Shown here: positions 1 through 15,569 of the stretch, in pieces
How positions within the stretch are numbered: position 1 is the stretch's first letter
Layout: every line of letters begins with the position of its first letter
NCBI RefSeq assembly: GCF_938010505.1
Contig: NZ_CALLVP010000065.1
Coordinates: 1 to 60,470 of the forward strand
Length of the DNA stretch: 60,470 nucleotides
Direction of reading: 5' to 3'
DNA from: an uncultured Veillonella sp.
GTDB taxonomy: Bacteria; Bacillota; Negativicutes; Veillonellales; Veillonellaceae
Position numbers and translations under genes: made by a program
Notes under the pieces: generated by a model
Seen by the model: the letters and a program-made list of their open reading frames with translations, nothing else
Databases searched by the model: none
What the model was told of the DNA's origin: nothing

Positions 1-5
1 TTTTT

Positions 6-53
6 ACTGACCCCCAGTTTAACTGGGGGTTTAGTCATGCCTATTCGGCGTAC
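6..53. mobile_element. Probable IS200/IS605-family end (subterminal hairpins); the element would extend off the left edge
   Basis: GC-rich hairpin ACCCCCAGT-TTA-ACTGGGGGT, then a second small hairpin and ACAATA next to a terminator. Same layout as the IS200 remnant end at 18655-18725. Confidence 0.4.
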
Positions 54-56
54 AAT

Positions 57-100
57 AAAAACCAAAAGAGCTCCTTCAACGAGGAGCTCTTTTGGTTTTT
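57..100 (-). terminator. Intrinsic terminator (bidirectional)
   Basis: AAAAACCAAAAGAGCTCCT / AGGAGCTCTTTTGGTTTTT inverted repeat with flanking A/T tracts. Confidence 0.85.
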
Positions 101-236
101 GTGTAGTTACTGTGTGTAAGAGAGAGATTCTGATACAAATGTATTACATAGAGTGTGTGGCTCTACGGTGGCCATGAATGCACTTTCATGACCACGTACT
201 CTTAAAGTATTCTGCTAGAAAGGGACTAATAGAATA
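57..236 (-). ncRNA. Candidate 3'UTR-derived structured RNA with CU-rich loops
   Basis: Consecutive minus-strand hairpins (loop UCCCUUU; GUGGUCAUGAA/UUCAUGGCCAC; UAGAG/CUCUA), single-stranded UCUCUCUCU, then the terminator. Confidence 0.4.
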
Positions 237-656
237 CTATTGGTTTTGTGTAGTTTGTGGTGCACCTTGACCAGTTGGTTGTTGTGGTACATTACCATTA
301 GGTTGACCACCTGGAAGTGGTTGACCTTGTGGAGGTATTTGACCATTTGAGTCCATACGCCTCCCATTATTTGGTCTCATACCATCTTGATGCATCATTT
401 GATTTTGACCATTTTGGTGCATATGCTTACCATTGTTTGGTCCCATACCACCTTGAGGCATCATTTGATTATTTCCATCCATCATATGTTTATCCATATA
501 CTTATTAGGACCATCATGTCTATGTGGTTTTCTAAACTGTTGTTCATTCGTTTTCATCCATTCACCGAAATTAGGTAAATCGTTAACTGCAAAAGATGTA
601 ACTGCTCCAACAGCACAGATGACTGTAAGAATAGCTGTTATTATAATTCGTCTCAT
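237..656 (-). CDS. Secreted low-complexity Met/Gln/Gly/His/Asn-rich protein
   Basis: SD AAGGAGG; signal peptide MRRIIITAILTVICAVGAVTSFA; internal NQMMxQxGMxPNNG repeats. Confidence 0.85.
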   Translation of the reverse strand: MRRIIITAILTVICAVGAVTSFAVNDLPNFGEWMKTNEQQFRKPHRHDGPNKYMDKHMMDGNNQMMPQGGMGPNNGKHMHQNGQNQMMHQDGMRPNNGRRMDSNGQIPPQGQPLPGGQPNGNVPQQPTGQGAPQTTQNQ

Positions 657-665
657 AGTTCCTCC

Positions 666-1241
666 TTAATCTACATTATGGAAGTAACGTTCACGCACAC
701 CGCGAAGCTCAAGCCCTACAAAGATACATACAAGTCCTCCGAAGAGCCCTACACCGCCTAATGCTACTAGAGTCATAGTAGACATTGCAGGGAATGCAGT
801 TATATGTTCAAAAGGTTGCCATGAACTACCTAATAAATATAAGATAGCTGGCGTAATGATAAATACAAGAACTCCTACAATATATGATAAAGTACTACCA
901 ATTGATAGTAATGTTTTAGAAGCCTTCTTAGCCATTCCAGGCAATTGTGGCAATAAACGTTCTTTATAATCATCAAATCTAGCATAGATTTCTTGCATAT
1001 TAACGGATTTACTTTCACCACCATCTTGACTGGATGAATCTGTAATAATGCCTGCATCTACATAGGATGCATAGATTTCCTCTGGTGTTCCTAAGGATTT
1101 AATAATTTCACCATCGGTAAGGCCTTTTTCATAACCTACCGCAAAGTGTTCCTCATAAACCTCTATAATATTCTCTACATCGGCAACATGCGCCTTTTTA
1201 AAGATATTACGCAAAGCCTCCAAAAAGCTATTTTTGTTCAT
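666..1241 (-). CDS. HAAS/DUF1700 domain membrane protein
   Basis: MNKNSFLEAL...YEEHF..G..G......I..LGTPEEI HAAS motif; two C-terminal TM helices; SD AAAGGAG before ATG 1241; coupled to PadR. Confidence 0.85.
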   Translation of the reverse strand: MNKNSFLEALRNIFKKAHVADVENIIEVYEEHFAVGYEKGLTDGEIIKSLGTPEEIYASYVDAGIITDSSSQDGGESKSVNMQEIYARFDDYKERLLPQLPGMAKKASKTLLSIGSTLSYIVGVLVFIITPAILYLLGSSWQPFEHITAFPAMSTMTLVALGGVGLFGGLVCIFVGLELRGVRERYFHNVD

Positions 1242-1557
1242 TATAGTCAACTCCTTTCAACAGGATATTGATAACACCAGAAAACTCATCCCATTCTTGG
1301 CGCATCTTATTGTATGCTGCACGACCATCGGCCGTAATGTGATAATATTTCCGAGATGGCCCCGTAGAGGACTCCTTCAAATACGTATCAACATACTTTT
1401 CTTTCTTTAATCTATTAAATAATGGATATATCGTTCCTTCTGAAATCTCAATATATTCCGAAATTGTACTTACGATTTCATATCCATAGCGATCGTCTTG
1501 TGTTAATAATGCTAGTACTAGCATGTCCATAACACCTTTTTTCAATTGAACTTGCAT
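1228..1557 (-). CDS. PadR-family transcriptional regulator
   Basis: QLKKG..., YGYEI, EGTIYP, GPSRKYY motifs; SD GGGAGG before ATG 1557. Confidence 0.95.
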   Translation of the reverse strand: MQVQLKKGVMDMLVLALLTQDDRYGYEIVSTISEYIEISEGTIYPLFNRLKKEKYVDTYLKESSTGPSRKYYHITADGRAAYNKMRQEWDEFSGVINILLKGVDYNEQK

Positions 1558-1634
1558 AGTTCCTCCCTTTAGGCCGTGCCTATCTGCCAATGTGAAAGCT
1601 CTCTTACGGTCACTATCATGTACTAACAAATATA

Positions 1635-1672
1635 TAATATCACAAGGTACCTAGCAATGCAAGGTACCTTGT
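1635..1672 (-). promoter_or_regulatory. Sigma70-type promoter overlapped by a probable PadR operator
   Basis: Minus-strand TTGCAT-N17-TATTAT with TGn; palindrome ACAAGGTACCT-N9-AGGTACCTTGT at 1642-1672. Confidence 0.75.
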
Positions 1673-1712
1673 AAAAATAAAATCCCCATCTGAGGATGAG
1701 GATTTTATTTTT
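1673..1712 (-). terminator. htrA terminator
   Basis: AAAATAAAATCC(C)CATC / GATG(A)GGATTTTATTTT hairpin. Confidence 0.7.
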
Positions 1713-1730
1713 CTTCTGAGCATAGAGCAC

Positions 1731-2828
1731 TTATTTCGAAGATGCTTGTCCTAATTTAAGCTGTGTGCTCTTCATTTTTCCGTTATGAGTATAGGATATT
1801 AAAATTGTATCTCCAGGGCTCTTAGCATCAATTTGCTCTTTTAATTCGAGTAATGTGGTAATATCCTTACCATCAATTTGCGCAATTGTATCCCCTTCTA
1901 CTATACCTGCTTGTGCTACCGGACCATTAGGATCCAATTGTACAACAAGAAGTCCGTCCCCTTCATAACTTACATTATTACGAGCTGCTGTTTGACGATC
2001 TATCGCCCACACACCAATATAAGGACGAATAACTTTACCATTTTTAATAATAGAATCAACGATTGTCATCGCAGAATTAATTGGAATGGCAAAACCCATT
2101 CCTTCAATCCCCTCTTTAGAGATTTTGGCGCTATTGATACCAATTAACTCTCCGTCTGCATTAATGAGAGCACCACCTGAGTTACCAGGATTAATAGCTG
2201 CATCAGTTTGAATCAATGGGAATCGTTGGCCTTGTTCATCAATTGTACGTGCTAACGCACTAATAACACCAGCGGTAACGGAACCTTTAAACTCTAACCC
2301 CAAAGGATTGCCAATAGCAATTGCGGGCTCACCCACTTGTACGGAATCGGAGTCCCCAATTTTTATAGGTTTAATATCTTTTGGAGGTTTAATTTTTACA
2401 ACCGCTAAATCCGTCTGTGAATCCGAACCTATAACAGTACCCGTCACGGTACTGCCGTCAGATAATGATATCGTAACCTCTCCATTTTTAGCCCCTGCCA
2501 CAACATGTTTATTCGTTACAATATGGCCTTCATTGTCGATAAGGACACCAGATCCAACACCTTCTCCCGCATAGATAGTGCGATTAAAAATATCCTTTTG
2601 GAATACTTGTGTTGTAATCCCTACAACAGCTGGACCAGATTCTTTAACCGCTTGCACTACATAGGTATTACGCGTTTCAGTGATTGGCTTAGTCTGTTTT
2701 GATTGTTCTCTCACATTTGTTGGTTGCGTATTAACAGGGCTACCAAAGAAATAGTATCCGCCCCCTACACCAATTCCCAAAGCAAGAATACAAGCAGCCG
2801 CTGTTTTCTTATATTTTAAAAATTCCAT
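1731..2828 (-). CDS. htrA: HtrA/DegP-family serine protease with PDZ domain
   Basis: N-terminal TM; GSGV, TNKHVV, DLAVVK, GNPLG, QTDAAINPGNSGG motifs; C-terminal PDZ. Confidence 0.95.
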   Translation of the reverse strand: MEFLKYKKTAAACILALGIGVGGGYYFFGSPVNTQPTNVREQSKQTKPITETRNTYVVQAVKESGPAVVGITTQVFQKDIFNRTIYAGEGVGSGVLIDNEGHIVTNKHVVAGAKNGEVTISLSDGSTVTGTVIGSDSQTDLAVVKIKPPKDIKPIKIGDSDSVQVGEPAIAIGNPLGLEFKGSVTAGVISALARTIDEQGQRFPLIQTDAAINPGNSGGALINADGELIGINSAKISKEGIEGMGFAIPINSAMTIVDSIIKNGKVIRPYIGVWAIDRQTAARNNVSYEGDGLLVVQLDPNGPVAQAGIVEGDTIAQIDGKDITTLLELKEQIDAKSPGDTILISYTHNGKMKSTQLKLGQASSK

Positions 2829-3186
2829 GTATATCTCCTTATGTCTGTTCTTATAGTAAGTTACATATCTATTATAACGATTAACACTCTTTATAAATGT
2901 ATTATACTTGTGTATCTATTGTAAATATATACTATAATATAGTATTACTTCATATATTCTAGTATTACTACTACATAACTCACTAGATTAATCACCCTCA
3001 AAAATCAATTTTATAAAATTGATTTTGATGAACCTATTATAGTACTCTAATCTACACAATGCAAGATAACAATTTATAACGAAACCCATAATGATATAAC
3101 TACTGTAAACAATATATTTCGCTCAATAAAAACTTAGAGAATTCAGGAGAAACCACATAAATATGTTCACATCTACACAAATACAT

Positions 3187-3235
3187 AAAAACATAAAGGG
3201 CATTCGCTAGCCGTCGCTAGCAAATGCCCTTTATG
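3187..3235 (-). terminator. Intrinsic terminator
   Basis: CAUAAAGGGCAUUUGCUAGC-GACG-GCUAGCGAAUGCCCUUUAUG followed by UUUUU. Confidence 0.85.
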
Positions 3236-3362
3236 CATATAGTTTGAGAGTGTAAGGACTGTTGAGAGAGAGAGTATATGTGATCTAGATAAGCTTAAGA
3301 GAGAACTTATTAAGAGAGAGAAGTTTAAATATTACTTATCTAGAGTCATAGTCAGCCTTACT
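3187..3362 (-). ncRNA. Candidate ~175-nt sRNA with four UCUCUC motifs
   Basis: -10 TATACT at 3369-3374; nested stems GUAAGG/CCUUAC and UCUAGAUAAG/CUUAUCUAGA; CU repeats in unpaired regions; strong terminator; no listed ORF. Confidence 0.65.
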
Positions 3363-3516
3363 TAAATAAGTATACATGGAATATCTAAACTATCAAAGTA
3401 ACTATATAAACAATTCTTAAATCTTTGATTATATTTCTATAATAAATCTCTACAAACTCATATCCTATCAACAGTCACGAACAACGTGAGTCTAATGTGA
3501 ATATACATTTCAGTTA

Positions 3517-4206
3517 TTAAACAAATTTATAACCTACACCCCATACTGTAATAATATGTTTACTATCGGATGGATTATCTTCAATTTCTTCACGTAAACG
3601 ATTGATATGTACCGCTACAGTAGCATAGTCACCATAGGAATCGAGACCCCATACACGAGAGTATAATTCTTCCTTACTAAATACGATGTCACGGTTACGC
3701 ATCAAGAATTCTAATAATTGGAATTCTTTCTTTTTGAGATGAACTTCTTTTTCATTCACCCATACTTTCATCATCTTAGGATCAAGGCGAATTTCATCGG
3801 ACTGAATAGCATTAGTTTCCATTGCATCGCGCTCTGTCAAACGTTTATATTGCGCCAACATAGCTTTGATTTTTGCAATTAAAACAGATGGAGAAAATGG
3901 TTTTTCAATATAATCATCAGCGCCTACGCCTAAGCCACGGATTTTATCGATATCATCAAGACGAGCGGTTACCATAACGATTGGTACACGAACTTTGTCG
4001 CGAATTTGACGACAAACTTCAAAGCCATCCATTTCTGGCAGCATAACATCAAGAATAATAAGGTCCACAGGAGTATTCAATGCAGCCTCGATACCATCTG
4101 TACCATTAGTCATAATAGTTACATCATAGCCTGCCACCATTAAATAATCACGCTCAATATTGGCAATATCCAAATCGTCTTCAATAATTAAGATATGTTC
4201 ACTCAT
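3517..4206 (-). CDS. OmpR/PhoB-family response regulator
   Basis: Receiver IIEDD...LDVMLP...GADDYIEKPF; wHTH ending HIITVWGVGYKF. Confidence 0.95.
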   Translation of the reverse strand: MSEHILIIEDDLDIANIERDYLMVAGYDVTIMTNGTDGIEAALNTPVDLIILDVMLPEMDGFEVCRQIRDKVRVPIVMVTARLDDIDKIRGLGVGADDYIEKPFSPSVLIAKIKAMLAQYKRLTERDAMETNAIQSDEIRLDPKMMKVWVNEKEVHLKKKEFQLLEFLMRNRDIVFSKEELYSRVWGLDSYGDYATVAVHINRLREEIEDNPSDSKHIITVWGVGYKFV

Positions 4207-5543
4207 GATTCTTCTCCTTGTTTAGGAAACTCTAATATAATGCGTAGACCATGTGGCCTTACATTTTCAATTACAACTCGGCCTTCAAAGATTTCCATAA
4301 TTCGACGAATAATCGACAATCCTAGACCACTTCCTTCTTGTGGGTTCGTACGAGACGAATCCACACGATAGAATGGGCGCATCAGACGCTCTAGAGATTC
4401 TGGTGGTACCCCTGGGCCATCATCACTGATGACACAGTATACAAAATCATCATCACTTGTTACATCGATAACGCAATGACCAATATCGGCCATTTTATAC
4501 TTAGCACTATTATTCAACACATTTTGTAAAACACGTTGTAATAATTGTGGGTTAGCATTGATAAAAGGTGTTTCTGTAGCTATTCGGGCCTTAATCTCAA
4601 GCCCCTTCGATTGATACGGAGCTAAATGATCTTCTACAAAATCACGTACATACTGGCCTAATTCAATTCGCTCAGATGGACGAGATTCTTTTTTGTAGTT
4701 CAACGTTGTTATGAGGAATAGCTCCTCCAACATAGAATCTAAATCATTAGCGCGCTTCAAAATGATACCCATGTATCGTTTTTGTTGCTCTTCCGTTGGT
4801 GCAATACCATCGCGAACACCTTCAGCATAAGCTTTTATAGCCGTTAATGGCGTTCGAATATCATGGGATATACCAGCAAGTAGCTCTTTTTGTTGTTCTT
4901 GTTCCATTTCAATCTGACGATTTGCCATTTCTAACGATTTTGTCATATTTTTAACGTGAATCATGATAAAGCGTGTAACAAATCGATTGATAGCAAAGAA
5001 TGTAACAATAAAGAGCAATATGGAAACTACAATAATATAGAAAGATACGGATTCCATTAAGCTATCACTACCATGAGTAGCGCGCTTAATCGCAATATGG
5101 TATACGTAGGCGTGACGCCCATCATATTTCCGCATTTCATAAACAAAAGTATTGTTGGATTGATACACGATACCCTGTAATTCAGGGTTAACATCGATAA
5201 GACCAACAATGGCAGAAGCACTATAGATTTGTGGGTTGCCATAGTTATACACCATGTTCCCTTGATCAAGTACCTCTACATATACCTCCTTTGGATCGAG
5301 AAGACTATAGCTAGGTTTAACCAAACTATTAATCAAATCATTTTCTAACCCATAAAAGGTAATGGTTTCAGTTATTCGACTGACGCTTTTAAACTGCTGT
5401 TCCTGCTCAATACGCAAATAGTAACCGGCATTAGCCAATATGCGCAAACCTGTAAAGTATAGCAAAAACAAGATAATTGCTATTAAAATAGGTACAACAA
5501 ACAGCACAACATTGGATATCCAAATTCGTATTTGTAAATTCAC
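4203..5543 (-). CDS. Sensor histidine kinase
   Basis: Two TMs; H-box SHDIRTPL; N-box; DDGPG; GSGLGL; ATGA overlap with the regulator; GTG start. Confidence 0.95.
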   Translation of the reverse strand: MNLQIRIWISNVVLFVVPILIAIILFLLYFTGLRILANAGYYLRIEQEQQFKSVSRITETITFYGLENDLINSLVKPSYSLLDPKEVYVEVLDQGNMVYNYGNPQIYSASAIVGLIDVNPELQGIVYQSNNTFVYEMRKYDGRHAYVYHIAIKRATHGSDSLMESVSFYIIVVSILLFIVTFFAINRFVTRFIMIHVKNMTKSLEMANRQIEMEQEQQKELLAGISHDIRTPLTAIKAYAEGVRDGIAPTEEQQKRYMGIILKRANDLDSMLEELFLITTLNYKKESRPSERIELGQYVRDFVEDHLAPYQSKGLEIKARIATETPFINANPQLLQRVLQNVLNNSAKYKMADIGHCVIDVTSDDDFVYCVISDDGPGVPPESLERLMRPFYRVDSSRTNPQEGSGLGLSIIRRIMEIFEGRVVIENVRPHGLRIILEFPKQGEES

Positions 5544-5582
5544 AGGATTACCTCAATATCATTAATAGTAGATACTTCTTAT

Positions 5583-5612
5583 AGTTTACGCTATTTTTAA
5601 TACTTAACGCAA
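5583..5612 (-). promoter_or_regulatory. Putative promoter of the two-component operon
   Basis: Minus-strand TTGCGT-N18-TAAACT about 40 nt upstream of the kinase start. Confidence 0.45.
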
Positions 5613-5628
5613 GTATAATACTCAAAAA

Positions 5629-5670
5629 TTCAATATATTATTCACATTTTCTTCATACACAGTTTATAAT
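5629..5670 (+). promoter_or_regulatory. Putative divergent promoter with 11-bp-phased direct repeats
   Basis: TTCACA-N5-TTCATA-N5-TTTATA overlapping TTCACA-N18-TATAAT. Confidence 0.5.
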
Positions 5671-5675
5671 TGGTA

Positions 5676-5984
5676 GATTATACAAGGGTTCCTCCTCCCT
5701 TTTAATATCTAATATTTCCCATAATAATAATATTTTCACACGCATCCAGGTATCTTATAACGATATGAAACTTGGTCATATCTAACGTTTCATAGATACT
5801 TAGTCTCCTCGCTTAATCAGACTCTCTCTATACTATTTATAAAATAATTTAAAATATAATATATAAAATAACTACTAAATCTCTTCATTTAATACAACGA
5901 AGCACATGCTAGATTATACTATTTCTCCATGAGAATAGTTTAAATTTAGACATAAAAAAAGAGGATTCCTAAGAATCCTCTTTT
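5676..5984 (+). ncRNA. Candidate sRNA with anti-Shine-Dalgarno loops (3' end uncertain)
   Basis: Hairpin loops UUCCUCCU (AAGGG/CCCUU stem), UCCCAU and CCUCGC, followed by CUCUCU; upstream promoter; bidirectional terminator at 5954-5984. Confidence 0.45.
5954..5984. terminator. Bidirectional intrinsic terminator
   Basis: A7-GAGGATTC-CTAA-GAATCCTC-T4. Confidence 0.85.
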
Positions 5985-5994
5985 AGAGTTTAAA

Positions 5995-7347
5995 TTAACG
6001 ACGATTAGCATCGAAGAAGTTAATAGCAACTTCTGGGAACATAGCGTAAGTCAATACGTCTTCGTCAGTGATACCATTGTAGCCTTTAGAAGCTAAATCT
6101 TGACGGTAACCTTCCAATTCAGGTTCGATAAGATCTGCTGGACGGCAAGTGATAGGTTGTTCGTCACCAATAACAGTTTGACGAATTTCGTCAGAAATAG
6201 TACCAGGCAACGCACCATATTTACCGCGTACAAGGTCTTTAACTTCGTTAGGAACCATTTTGTAACGGTCGCCCATCATAACGTTCATCATAGCCATTGT
6301 ACCAACGATTTGGGATGTTGGAGTTACCAATGGAGGGAAACCTAAGTCTTCACGAACGCGTGGCATTTCATCCATAACGTCGAAGAAACGATCGCCCATA
6401 CCCATTTCGTTCAATTGGTTTTGAGTATTAGACAACATACCGCCAGGAATTTGGTAACGACGAACAGCTGGGATTACATCACTAGCTGGTTTCAAGTTAA
6501 ATTCTTCAGCGATTTGTTGTTTAACTTTACGGAAGTGATCAACTAATGGAATGAATTTATCAAGGTCAAGACCAAGATCATATTCAGTACCTTTGAACAT
6601 TTCAATCATAGTTTCAGTAGCTGGTTGGCTAGTTGCATGAGCGAATGGGGAGATAGCAGTATCGATGATATCTACGCCAGCTTTAGCAGCTTCCCAGTAT
6701 GCAGTGCTTGCAAGACCGCAAGTGAAATGGCTATGTAAATCGATTGGCAATTCGCCGAAACGTTTTTTGAAAGTAGAAACCAAATCATACGCATCAGCAG
6801 GGCCTAACAAACCAGACATATCTTTGATACAAAGGGAATCAGTACCCATTTCAACCAAAGTTTCAGCTACTTTCAAGAAGCTTTCAGTTGTGTGAACTGG
6901 AGAAATTGTATATACCATAGCGGATTGAACGTGCGCACCAGCTTTTTTAGAGTACTTAATAGCAGCTTCCATGTTGCGTGGGTCATTCAATGCGTCGAAA
7001 ATACGGATACGGTCGATACCATTTTTAACAGCTGCACCACAGAATGCTTCTACTACATCATCAGAGTAGTGTTTATAGCCCAATAAGTTTTGGCCACGAA
7101 GTAACATTTGTAATGGAGTGTTTTTCAAGTTGGATTTCAATTTGCGAAGGCGTTCCCATGGATCTTCATTCAAGAAACGAAGACAGCTATCATAAGTAGC
7201 ACCGCCCCAACACTCAAGAGCTTCGTAACCGATATCGTCTAAAAGACCAAGTACTGGTTCCATTTGCTCATAACGCATGCGTGTTGCCAAAACAGATTGA
7301 TGACCGTCACGAAGAACGGTTTCGCAAATTCTTAATTTTTTAGCCAT
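5995..7347 (-). CDS. Pyruvate/oxaloacetate carboxyltransferase (OadA/PycB/transcarboxylase 5S-like), no biotinyl domain
   Basis: ETVLRDGHQS, ECWGGATYD, IKDMSG, HSH, QIPGGM, PPLVTPTSQIVG; ends at YAMFPEVA with no EAMKM domain. Confidence 0.9.
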   Translation of the reverse strand: MAKKLRICETVLRDGHQSVLATRMRYEQMEPVLGLLDDIGYEALECWGGATYDSCLRFLNEDPWERLRKLKSNLKNTPLQMLLRGQNLLGYKHYSDDVVEAFCGAAVKNGIDRIRIFDALNDPRNMEAAIKYSKKAGAHVQSAMVYTISPVHTTESFLKVAETLVEMGTDSLCIKDMSGLLGPADAYDLVSTFKKRFGELPIDLHSHFTCGLASTAYWEAAKAGVDIIDTAISPFAHATSQPATETMIEMFKGTEYDLGLDLDKFIPLVDHFRKVKQQIAEEFNLKPASDVIPAVRRYQIPGGMLSNTQNQLNEMGMGDRFFDVMDEMPRVREDLGFPPLVTPTSQIVGTMAMMNVMMGDRYKMVPNEVKDLVRGKYGALPGTISDEIRQTVIGDEQPITCRPADLIEPELEGYRQDLASKGYNGITDEDVLTYAMFPEVAINFFDANRR

Positions 7348-15138: not shown

Positions 15139-15569
15139 CAGTGGATAGCTCCGGCAATTATGAGGGCACAACCCACAAAGATACCAAAGATCATAATGCC
15201 TGCCGCCGTATTCCCACGCATAATCTCTTCGGCTAAGGAATATTTACGGTGAAACGCATTAACCAAGAAAAATCCTACTAAGAATATAGCTATGCCAATA
15301 ACAGAATACAAAAGGCTAGACACCAAGCCCTGTAAAAGATATTCCTCCACCGCTTGCGCTGATGGTGATTGAATAGCAGCGCGAACGATTTCGCCGATAC
15401 CAATAAAGGATCCCGCACAAAGCCAAGCTACGGCACGATTGCCGCGCTTAATTTCAGTAGGGAAATCACCGGGAATAAAGACATCAATAATCCAATTACC
15501 AATAATCATCAGTATGATACCGATAAGGGAAAAGACAACCACATTTATAATATCTACGATATAAGGCAT
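15138..15569 (-). CDS. DUF350 membrane protein
   Basis: Four TMs with duplicated EI.RGN.A motif; conserved context with speE and DUF4178. Confidence 0.85.
   Translation of the reverse strand: MPYIVDIINVVVFSLIGIILMIIGNWIIDVFIPGDFPTEIKRGNRAVAWLCAGSFIGIGEIVRAAIQSPSAQAVEEYLLQGLVSSLLYSVIGIAIFLVGFFLVNAFHRKYSLAEEIMRGNTAAGIMIFGIFVGCALIIAGAIH

Follow-up and report, generated by a model that had tools for sequence, protein, structure and literature searches.

The first ~6 kb of a contig from an uncultured Veillonella sp. (contig NZ_CALLVP010000065.1, assembly GCF_938010505.1) were studied, where a small RNA (sRNA) gene appears between the genes of a two-component system (TCS) and the gene of the protease HtrA. 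The whole stretch of 60,470 nt is referred to as the window, its own genome (2.07 Mb, 99.99% complete) as G000, and the other genomes by G and a number. Six genes lie on the minus strand in these first 6 kb, namely those of a histidine kinase (HK, 5543-4203), a response regulator (RR) of the OmpR/PhoB type (4206-3517), HtrA (2828-1731), a PadR protein (1557-1228), a HAAS-domain membrane protein (1250-666) and p139, a secreted Q/P/N-rich protein of 139 aa that has no Pfam family (656-237). An OadA-like carboxylase gene (7347-5995, minus) is found upstream of the kinase. The HK and RR proteins missed all the NCBIfam equivalog cut-offs, the best scores of the latter being those of the VanR, YycF, RpaB and MtrA models, all below the cut-off. 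A sequence-only reading of this DNA had proposed three CU-rich sRNAs next to these genes, candidate 1 (57-236, minus), candidate 2 (3187-3362, minus) and candidate 3 (5676-5984, plus), each exposing pyrimidine motifs and ending at a terminator, two of them with their own promoters, and all of them joined to the HK-RR-HtrA-PadR-HAAS genes in one regulon resembling that of streptococcal CiaRH. The gene context was confirmed, the named pyrimidine motifs were present where they had been placed, and the three segments had no long open reading frame (ORF) and were folded, with z-scores versus shuffles of -8.0, -8.7 and -3.1 for candidates 1, 2 and 3, respectively, of which the terminators account for much.

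Candidate 2 is predicted to be a structured sRNA of ~175 nt that folds at -59 kcal/mol into an outer and a covarying inner stem, with CU-rich loops and a terminator. The small ORFs within it and within the spacer separating it from the RR gene did not keep their frame across the alignments, and, in an alignment of 19 loci, the block from its -35 element to its terminator was much better conserved than the adjoining region upstream of htrA. A search of window positions 1-6300 against Rfam 15 gave no match at the gathering threshold and none at E<=10, the best sub-threshold matches falling on hairpins or terminators with scores far below the cut-off. RNAalifold applied to 15 distinct candidate 2 sequences proposed 48 base pairs, 13 of which showed compensatory changes, and a covariance model was built from this first-pass alignment. 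The set was then widened with 12 divergent loci to 29 distinct sequences, for which 97.0% of the cells were paired (88.7 +/- 0.5% in shuffles, with none of the 500 shuffles reaching the observed value) and 21 of the 48 pairs were changed on both sides (12.7 +/- 1.1 in shuffles), as counted in an alignment fitted to the model and containing many close kin. Slid controls on the same sequences had only 35-49% of the cells paired and two to four pairs changed on both sides. In particular, nine pairs of helix 6, the terminator, presented compensatory changes.

The single-stranded parts of candidate 2 are those that are best kept, and three of them were considered as putative seeds (all on the minus strand). 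Seed 1, AACUUCUCUCUCUUAAUAAGUUCUCUCU (3298-3325), falls within the apical loop and an internal loop, and was invariant in the 29 homologues save for one U/C column, its consensus being AACUUCUCUCUCUUAA(U/C)AAGUUCUCUCU. Seed 2, AUAUACUCUCUCUCUCAAC (3261-3279), is unpaired in the consensus structure and kept its CUCUCUCUC core in the 29 homologues, the variation of its consensus, AUAUA(CU)nCUCUCUCAAC, being limited to the number of CU units. Together with the preceding CAC, the reverse complement of seed 2 reads GAGAGAGAG-UAU-AUG, that is, an anti-Shine-Dalgarno (anti-SD) sequence plus an anti-start sequence. Seed 3, CCUUACACUCUCAAACUAUAUGCA (3234-3257), is a single-stranded linker located 5′ of the terminator and was nearly invariant. 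Thus, ~80 nt of single-stranded sequence remained invariant or nearly so while the stems drifted, and such variable stems with fixed loops are the pattern expected of a trans-acting RNA. These features identify candidate 2 as a real non-coding RNA gene, the sole solid one among the three candidates, and support well its being a new sRNA gene that has no Rfam family. A single RNA-library contig (run X2) had adapter letters joined at position 3301, inside the second CU loop, which may mark a fragment end, a processing site or an artefact.

A sigma-70-like promoter, TTGATA-16-TATACT, precedes candidate 2 (3369-3396, minus; -35 at 3396, -10 at 3374-3369), and its GTATACT was invariant in 19 distinct orthologous promoters. 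Upstream of the -35 element, a direct repeat TTTAAG-N5-TTTATA (3405-3421, minus) may be a regulator site, and a pair of the form TTTAWR-N5-TTTAWA occupied the equivalent position in all eight divergent species aligned. The spacer from the RR stop codon to the promoter (3422-3516, minus) contains TTCAC-N6-CTCAC and a second TATAAT, and the region between the RR and the sRNA (~150 nt) was strongly conserved in the alignments. An intrinsic terminator (3192-3235, minus), composed of a 20-bp stem and a subsequent T-run, serves both candidate 2 and the HK-RR operon. No terminator-like site was found between the RR stop codon (3517) and candidate 2, so the HK-RR transcripts must enter the sRNA and end at its terminator. 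The operon promoter, TTGCGT (5612-5607)-18-TAAACT (5588-5583), was kept in seven of seven species, including those with a minimal spacer, and places the start of the kinase operon at 5576. Evidence at the RNA level came from Logan contigs of RNA libraries, which carry no information on strand, start, end or expression level. Contigs from three studies bridged the RR gene and candidate 2, all of them stopping inside its terminator (run X13, 3211-5576; run X6, 3222-5898; run X1, 3243-3603). Since they hold no strand or end information, they are only a weak hint of HK-RR-sRNA cotranscription. No contig covered the candidate 1 core or positions 2945-3190, which is not evidence of absence.

The distribution of candidate 2 was restricted to Veillonella almost entirely. 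The covariance model found a single strong copy in G000 (214.8 bits), the next matches in this genome being the antisense strand of its own terminator (39.5 bits) and a site on contig C21 (36 bits). Moreover, candidate 2 was detected in 74 of 81 other Veillonella genomes and in none of those of three other genera of the family (0/25, 0/1 and 0/1), while a fourth genus gave one weak match (37 bits) among 12 genomes. By BLAST, the region was present in 18 of 24 genomes of the same genus and in none of 16 genomes from three other families of the order. The order HK-RR-sRNA-HtrA, on one strand, was maintained in all 12 divergent Veillonella loci analysed, with kinase identity down to 64%. Five of five sRNA-less Veillonella genomes tested had no kinase orthologue, kinase-core matches of 22-31% identity being the most that any of them gave. 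Relatives of the kinase in named genome records came from Veillonella in 63 of 64 loci (84-99% identity), and two other genera of the family gave only kinase-core matches of 27-39% identity, with no orthologous kinase. Because of this synteny, the joint loss with the kinase and the kinase-core-only matches outside the genus, the HK, RR, sRNA and htrA genes behave, as judged by comparative genomics, as one Veillonella-specific module.

This arrangement also admits that candidate 2 acts in cis only, as the 3′ untranslated region (3′UTR) and terminator of the HK-RR operon, stabilising the mRNA and insulating htrA from read-through. The uninterrupted path from the RR gene, the RNA contigs that span from the kinase promoter region to the terminator and the constant attachment of candidate 2 to the HK-RR operon would all fit such a role. 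However, a 3′ stabiliser needs just a hairpin, and here it is the ~80 nt of single strand that are invariant and the stems that drift, besides which a separate conserved promoter precedes candidate 2. A purely cis-acting element is thus considered unlikely.

Candidate 1 lies at the opposite end of the studied region. Its core (57-196, minus) consists of three short hairpins, an unpaired AAUCUCUCUCUUACACACA... stretch and a two-way terminator (57-100), the unpaired sequence between the hairpins and the terminator being AAUCUCUCUCUUACACACAAUAACUACAC. This core of ~140 nt was nearly invariant in 28 distinct sequences, whereas the p139 protein encoded upstream was only 56-72% identical. A total of 39 pairs were predicted in it, four of them with compensatory changes. 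Directly 3′ of the p139 stop codon, a variable hairpin (208-236, minus) has the loop UCCCUUUCU in G000; its stem differs between species yet still pairs, and its UCCCUUU-bearing loop is not conserved. Candidate 1 was found in 49 of 61 Veillonella genomes, and was not found in G044 and G064, both of which lack PadR-HAAS-p139 beside htrA. No conserved -10 element was seen before the core. Furthermore, the two-way hairpin is common to a convergent gene in relatives, which ends at it, so candidate 1 is a 3′ element and not a 5′ leader. RNA contigs of the operon ended where the core begins on its 5′ side, at 195 and 209 (two runs of one study), which hints only weakly at processing, as contigs cannot show RNA ends. 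With its core placed between the p139 stop codon (237) and the terminator, no promoter of its own and a AAUCUCUCUCUUACACACA seed that is invariant or almost so, candidate 1 is a probable 3′UTR-derived sRNA of the PadR-HAAS-p139 operon. It has the heptamer CUUACAC in common with seed 3 of candidate 2.

Several observations were made around candidate 1. Window positions ~1-60 belong to a multi-copy repeat that recurs with 93-100% identity at numerous sites in many Veillonella genomes, in many cases exactly where a contig ends, and an insertion sequence or another dispersed repeat probably has its edge here. On the 3′ side of candidate 1, where the window has this repeat, relatives have a convergent gene of 195 aa. 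Some relatives carry the p139 gene in two tandem copies (e.g. locus L039, G072, 575-1561), and its length and sequence are highly variable. Finally, an inverted repeat, ACAAGGTACC-N11-GGTACCTTGT (1642-1672, minus), overlaps the padR promoter (TTGCAT-17-TATTAT) and may be a site of PadR autoregulation.

Candidate 3 was rejected as a conserved sRNA, since its fold is weak (z-score -3.1), neither its body nor its UUCCUCCU loop was conserved and the segment was missing in several species. Only the region ~5500-5775 was kept in more distant species, positions 5776-5940 not being conserved. Its promoter-like element, TTCACA (5641)-18-TATAAT (5670) (5641-5670, plus), includes three hexamers phased by 11 bp, TTCACA-N5-TTCATA-N5-TTTATAAT (TTCACA/TTCATA/TTTATA(AT)), and belongs to part of the genus only, being kept in 20 aligned relatives and absent from G044, G105, G104 and G041. 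In G044 and G105, the spacer between the carboxylase and the kinase genes is only 157 nt long and contains a terminator and then the kinase promoter, candidate 3 being missing, and unrelated sequence fills this spacer in G104 and G041. The hairpin at 5957-5984 terminates the OadA-like gene (5995-7347), since its long T-run is on the minus strand, with only TTTT on the plus strand. Candidate 3 is thus, as far as its conservation indicates, no part of the system. From the kinase gene, the contig of run X6 continues over candidate 3 up to 5898, and may represent a long leader or overlapping transcripts.

The first reading is therefore to be corrected to one solid RNA, one probable RNA of the 3′UTR type and one rejected, with a shared regulator box not supported. 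Of the structures it pointed to, that of candidate 2 was conserved across relatives (21/48 compensatory pairs), that of candidate 1 gave 4/39, and the body of candidate 3 was not kept. The significance given to the pyrimidine motifs was retained for the seeds of candidate 2 and lost for the UUCCUCCU loop of candidate 3 and the UCCCUUU loop of candidate 1, both of which vary. As for the terminators, candidate 2 has its own, candidate 1 a two-way one, and that of candidate 3 belongs to the OadA-like gene. The promoter of candidate 2 stood, and that of candidate 3 did so in part of the genus. Similarly, the HK-RR-sRNA-HtrA module was borne out, while PadR/HAAS was not upheld as a fixed part of the regulon, its linkage to the module being variable.

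Taken as a whole, the best explanation, held with moderate confidence, is that candidate 2 is a regulatory RNA of ~175 nt of Veillonella that would block ribosome-binding sites (RBSs) as an arm of a stress response. Two sources would supply it, the 3′ end of the HK-RR transcript and initiation at its own promoter, and its invariant CU-rich single strands would pair with GA-rich RBSs, which would block translation without Hfq, as streptococcal csRNAs do. Given its joint inheritance with the kinase, the regulator and htrA, candidate 2 would most likely act in a response to envelope or secretion stress, as the post-transcriptional arm. In that response, misfolded exported proteins would be removed by HtrA, and the sRNA would reduce the synthesis of exported or outer-membrane proteins. 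Moreover, candidate 1 is probably a second sRNA-like element, built along similar lines, that the PadR-HAAS-p139 operon would release from its 3′ end. Neither Hfq (PF17209, for which control genomes gave matches) nor CsrA was found in G000.

Possible targets were searched among 1,884 start regions of G000, with gene calls from a crude ORF finder. SD sequences of the GGAGAGAG type were common among the RBSs of this genome, and GAGAGAG appeared in the RBS of ~30 predicted genes, including those of TpsB, TpsA and a DD-carboxypeptidase. Runs of (CT)n were scarce, with CTCTCTC occurring 72 times against ~168 expected by base composition, and merged runs amounting to 131 in the 2.07 Mb, five of them within window positions 1-6000. 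The seeds bound start regions better than internal coding segments, and the best predicted sites included those of the TpsB outer-membrane transporter, TpsA, the DD-carboxypeptidase and a trimeric autotransporter adhesin with an SLH domain. In the last case, UGAGGGUGUAAG, directly 5′ of the AUG, would form a duplex of 12 bp with seed 3, and this site was identical in two of the four relatives where the start region was found and different by one base in a third. The adhesin and the TpsB/TpsA pair are accordingly named as predicted targets with low confidence.

Several results weigh against this regulatory role and its link to the TCS. To begin with, the pairing of the seeds with the 1,884 start regions did not exceed that of shuffled seeds matched in composition; for instance, seed 1 reached -16 kcal/mol or below in 169 start regions, compared to 162 for the shuffles. 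As shuffled seeds bind start regions equally well, the target predictions are weak and indicate no specific regulon. The start regions of htrA, HK, RR, padR, HAAS and p139 were not among the best duplex sites (ranks 0.03-0.89). Furthermore, the count of 21 in 48 covarying pairs rests on a model-fitted alignment with many rows of close kin, and the RNA data consist of contigs, which show neither a discrete candidate 2 transcript nor its strand or ends. On the side of regulation, the promoter of candidate 2 had no box in common with the htrA or HK promoters in G000, and an nhmmer profile of 19 orthologous sRNA promoters matched only itself in this genome (E 4.8e-15; next E 1.3). Nor were the repeats enriched, as TTYAHR-N5-TTYAHR appeared 8 times in the 60-kb window versus 4.65 +/- 2.2 expected, with 11 of 100 shuffles reaching 8, and TTTAWR-N5-TTTAWA 27 times in G000 versus ~18 expected. 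Finally, the four CU copies in the loops of candidate 2 would fit a protein-titrating RNA too.

In such a sponge, the four CUCUC-containing loops or linkers would sequester a pyrimidine-binding protein. One short motif in several loop or linker copies, invariant including its flanks, is what a sponge would present, and the pairing with start regions, which has no specificity beyond base composition, leaves room for it. However, homologues of CsrA and Hfq were not found in G000, and we know of no bacterial CU-binding global regulator. Moreover, seed 2 is an exact anti-SD-spacer-AUG sequence, and the 12-bp match of seed 3 in a start region recurs unchanged in two relatives and with a single base difference in a third, all of which makes a sponge decidedly unlikely compared to the antisense regulator proposed here.

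Another alternative is the full model of the earlier reading, in which the RR would drive the three candidates, together with htrA and the PadR-HAAS operon, as a single regulon through TTYAHR direct repeats. Repeats phased by 11 bp exist indeed at the promoters of both candidate 2 (3421-3405, minus) and candidate 3 (5641-5657 and 5652-5668), the sRNA and the TCS co-occur, and in G044 (locus L160) and G105 (locus L165) TTTATA-N5-TTTATA is found 7 nt upstream of the kinase -35 element and again before the sRNA, a hint of autoregulation in this clade. The exact TTTAAG-N5-TTTATA appeared six times in G000 against ~1.8 expected, in surroundings that varied (among others, an MFS transporter and an ORF-free stretch). 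Against the full model stand the repeat pattern not being enriched and no second promoter of G000 resembling that of the sRNA. The htrA promoter is built differently, with a near-consensus TTGCAT-17-TATAAT (3036-3064, minus) followed by a palindrome and without repeats. Several species that retain the module have no candidate 3, and PadR-HAAS-p139, present downstream of htrA in five of the 12 divergent loci, was absent from at least 2.7 kb analysed downstream of htrA in G104, G044 and G064, where candidate 1 is missing beside htrA as well. In addition, the recognition helix of the adjacent RR, TVAVHINRLREEI, differs from that of CiaR, VVEVYVSKVRKKL, as given in PMC3091779. The full regulon is therefore very doubtful. 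Control of candidate 2 itself by the adjacent RR is a reasonable guess, plausible from linkage only, because a shared box, enriched repeats and a CiaR-like helix are lacking.

One of the six exact repeats, at position 15341 (plus) of contig C54 in G000, is followed after 8 nt by TATACT, then by ~340 nt without an ORF of at least 60 aa and by a terminator-like hairpin, and may represent a further non-coding transcript with a csRNA-like promoter layout.

Lastly, a role of candidate 2 as the cis-regulatory leader or attenuator of htrA, whose conditional terminator would gate read-through, is highly improbable, since, despite its position immediately before htrA in all 12 loci and the ~20 nt that separate the terminator from the htrA -35 element in some species, htrA has its own promoter, kept in eight of nine species (G104 has only TATAAT, with no clear -35), the terminator stem is 20 bp long with no competing antiterminator visible in the consensus fold, and, as a weak point, the contigs stop at the terminator with none over 2945-3190. 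Just 3′ of the htrA -10 element lies the palindrome mentioned above, a perfect one of 26 nt, AAAATCAATTTTATAAAATTGATTTT (3001-3026, minus), present once in the window versus 0.03 expected. It was kept in V. parvula-like species, while the V. atypica-like clade had a different, AATTG-based palindrome in the same place, and it may be the operator for a repressor or the 5′ hairpin of the htrA mRNA.

Outside the locus, two further CU-rich segments of G000 were noted. The first, L142 (contig C129, 1110-1295, plus), is ORF-free, lies between the genes of a methyladenine glycosylase and a DUF554 protein, presents a promoter-like site, a hairpin with a ACUCUCUCUCUCUCC loop, an unpaired AGUUCUCUCUCAACGCUAUAAAC and a terminator, and was kept in two of the five relatives tested. 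The second, L143 (contig C66, 690-860, plus), also ORF-free, is flanked by the genes of a PepSY-domain protein and an alanine racemase and has a promoter-like site, AUAUACUCUCUCUCACAA, a terminator, and a UUGACUCUCUCCUAUG hairpin loop and a UUCCCUCC stretch that were invariant in the four relatives where it was found (of five tested). Neither of them matched Rfam at the gathering threshold or at E<=10. Since they too have conserved CU loops, promoter-like sites and terminators, CU-rich sRNAs seem to be a general theme in Veillonella, not peculiar to the HK-htrA locus.

The literature search returned no sRNA, envelope-stress pathway or HtrA-linked sensor system for Veillonella, and no sRNAs for Negativicutes, and the main text of the screen of a Veillonella genome by Brewer et al. 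2021 names only the gltD, ldh2, ilvD and potE motifs (PMC8632094). Candidate 2 offers a clean, testable entry point, being single-copy, with defined ends and invariant seeds, and its place between a sensor system and a protease suggests its biology. Veillonella abounds as a commensal in the mouth and the gut, and V. parvula serves as the genetic model for diderm Firmicutes. If the proposed link is true, the coupling of an envelope sensor, HtrA and an anti-SD sRNA would have arisen independently in an outer-membrane lineage without Hfq, and the regulation of adhesins, relevant to biofilm formation, would be tied to envelope stress. A more complete circuit is put forward tentatively, in which the genus-specific TCS would make the multi-seed sRNA under envelope stress, as the tail of the HK-RR operon and from the second promoter, translation of the adhesin, TpsA and TpsB would be turned off, HtrA would clear misfolded cargo and candidate 1, cut from the 3′ end of its operon and likewise bearing CUUACAC, would converge on the same targets. 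Such a circuit would be a convergent counterpart of CiaRH-csRNA-HtrA and of sigma-E-MicA/RybB/MicL.

Three groups of known systems were compared with the candidates. The Firmicute sRNAs of the RsaE/RoxS type have C-rich or UCCC loop motifs that pair with G-rich SD regions, for which Hfq is not needed. Candidate 2 also exposes pyrimidine-rich loop motifs; however, its motif is (CU)n instead of CCCC/UCCC, it gave no Rfam match to RsaE or to any family, and the regulation and gene neighbourhood of those sRNAs are unlike its own.

CpxQ is a 3′UTR-derived envelope-stress sRNA of enterobacteria. The same is described for MicL (PMC4102768). The likeness concerns candidate 1 and, in part, candidate 2, which are found at the 3′ end of an envelope-related mRNA, use its terminator and have a conserved single-stranded seed just upstream of it. 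On the other hand, MicL and CpxQ need Hfq, which was not found in G000 (PF17209), as well as release by RNase E or an internal sigma-E promoter, and they have no sequence similarity with candidates 1 and 2, for which processing is predicted only.

As in the case of the streptococcal csRNAs, candidate 2 is a small RNA linked to an OmpR-family TCS and to htrA, with a TTTAAG-N5-TTTATA direct repeat upstream of it, in a host without Hfq, as streptococci are to our knowledge. In streptococci, htrA is regulated by CiaR, according to PMC10197876. Like the csRNAs described in PMC3091779, candidate 2 would present unpaired anti-SD and anti-start sequences between stem-loops and an intrinsic terminator. 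It is intergenic, its terminator (3235-3192) lies less than 250 nt from the -10 element (3374-3369), and its unpaired CACAUAUACUCUCUCUCUC is, at the level of sequence, the reverse complement of GAGAGAGAG-UAU-AUG-UG. Other features set them apart. In the csRNA promoters, as given in that source, NTTAAG-N5-TTTAAG is located 10 bp upstream of the -10 element with an essential final G (PMC3091779), whereas the repeat of candidate 2 ends 30 nt from its -10 (3374) and has an A in place of the final G. Likewise, the recognition helix of CiaR reads VVEVYVSK(V/I)RKKL in the same text, compared to ...YATVAVHINRLREEIE... in the adjacent RR. The CiaRH-like analogy of the sequence-only reading is thus preserved in the anti-SD-spacer-AUG strand and the lack of Hfq, and abandoned for the regulator. 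Furthermore, candidate 2 belongs to a diderm Negativicute, of another genus and phylum-level lineage, shows no sequence or Rfam similarity to csRNAs, and appears as a single copy versus two to six csRNA paralogues. It is also a longer RNA that has four CU stretches and physically forms the 3′ end of the TCS operon. By its predicted design and its neighbourhood, candidate 2 is best described as a csRNA-like analogue rather than as a member of that family.

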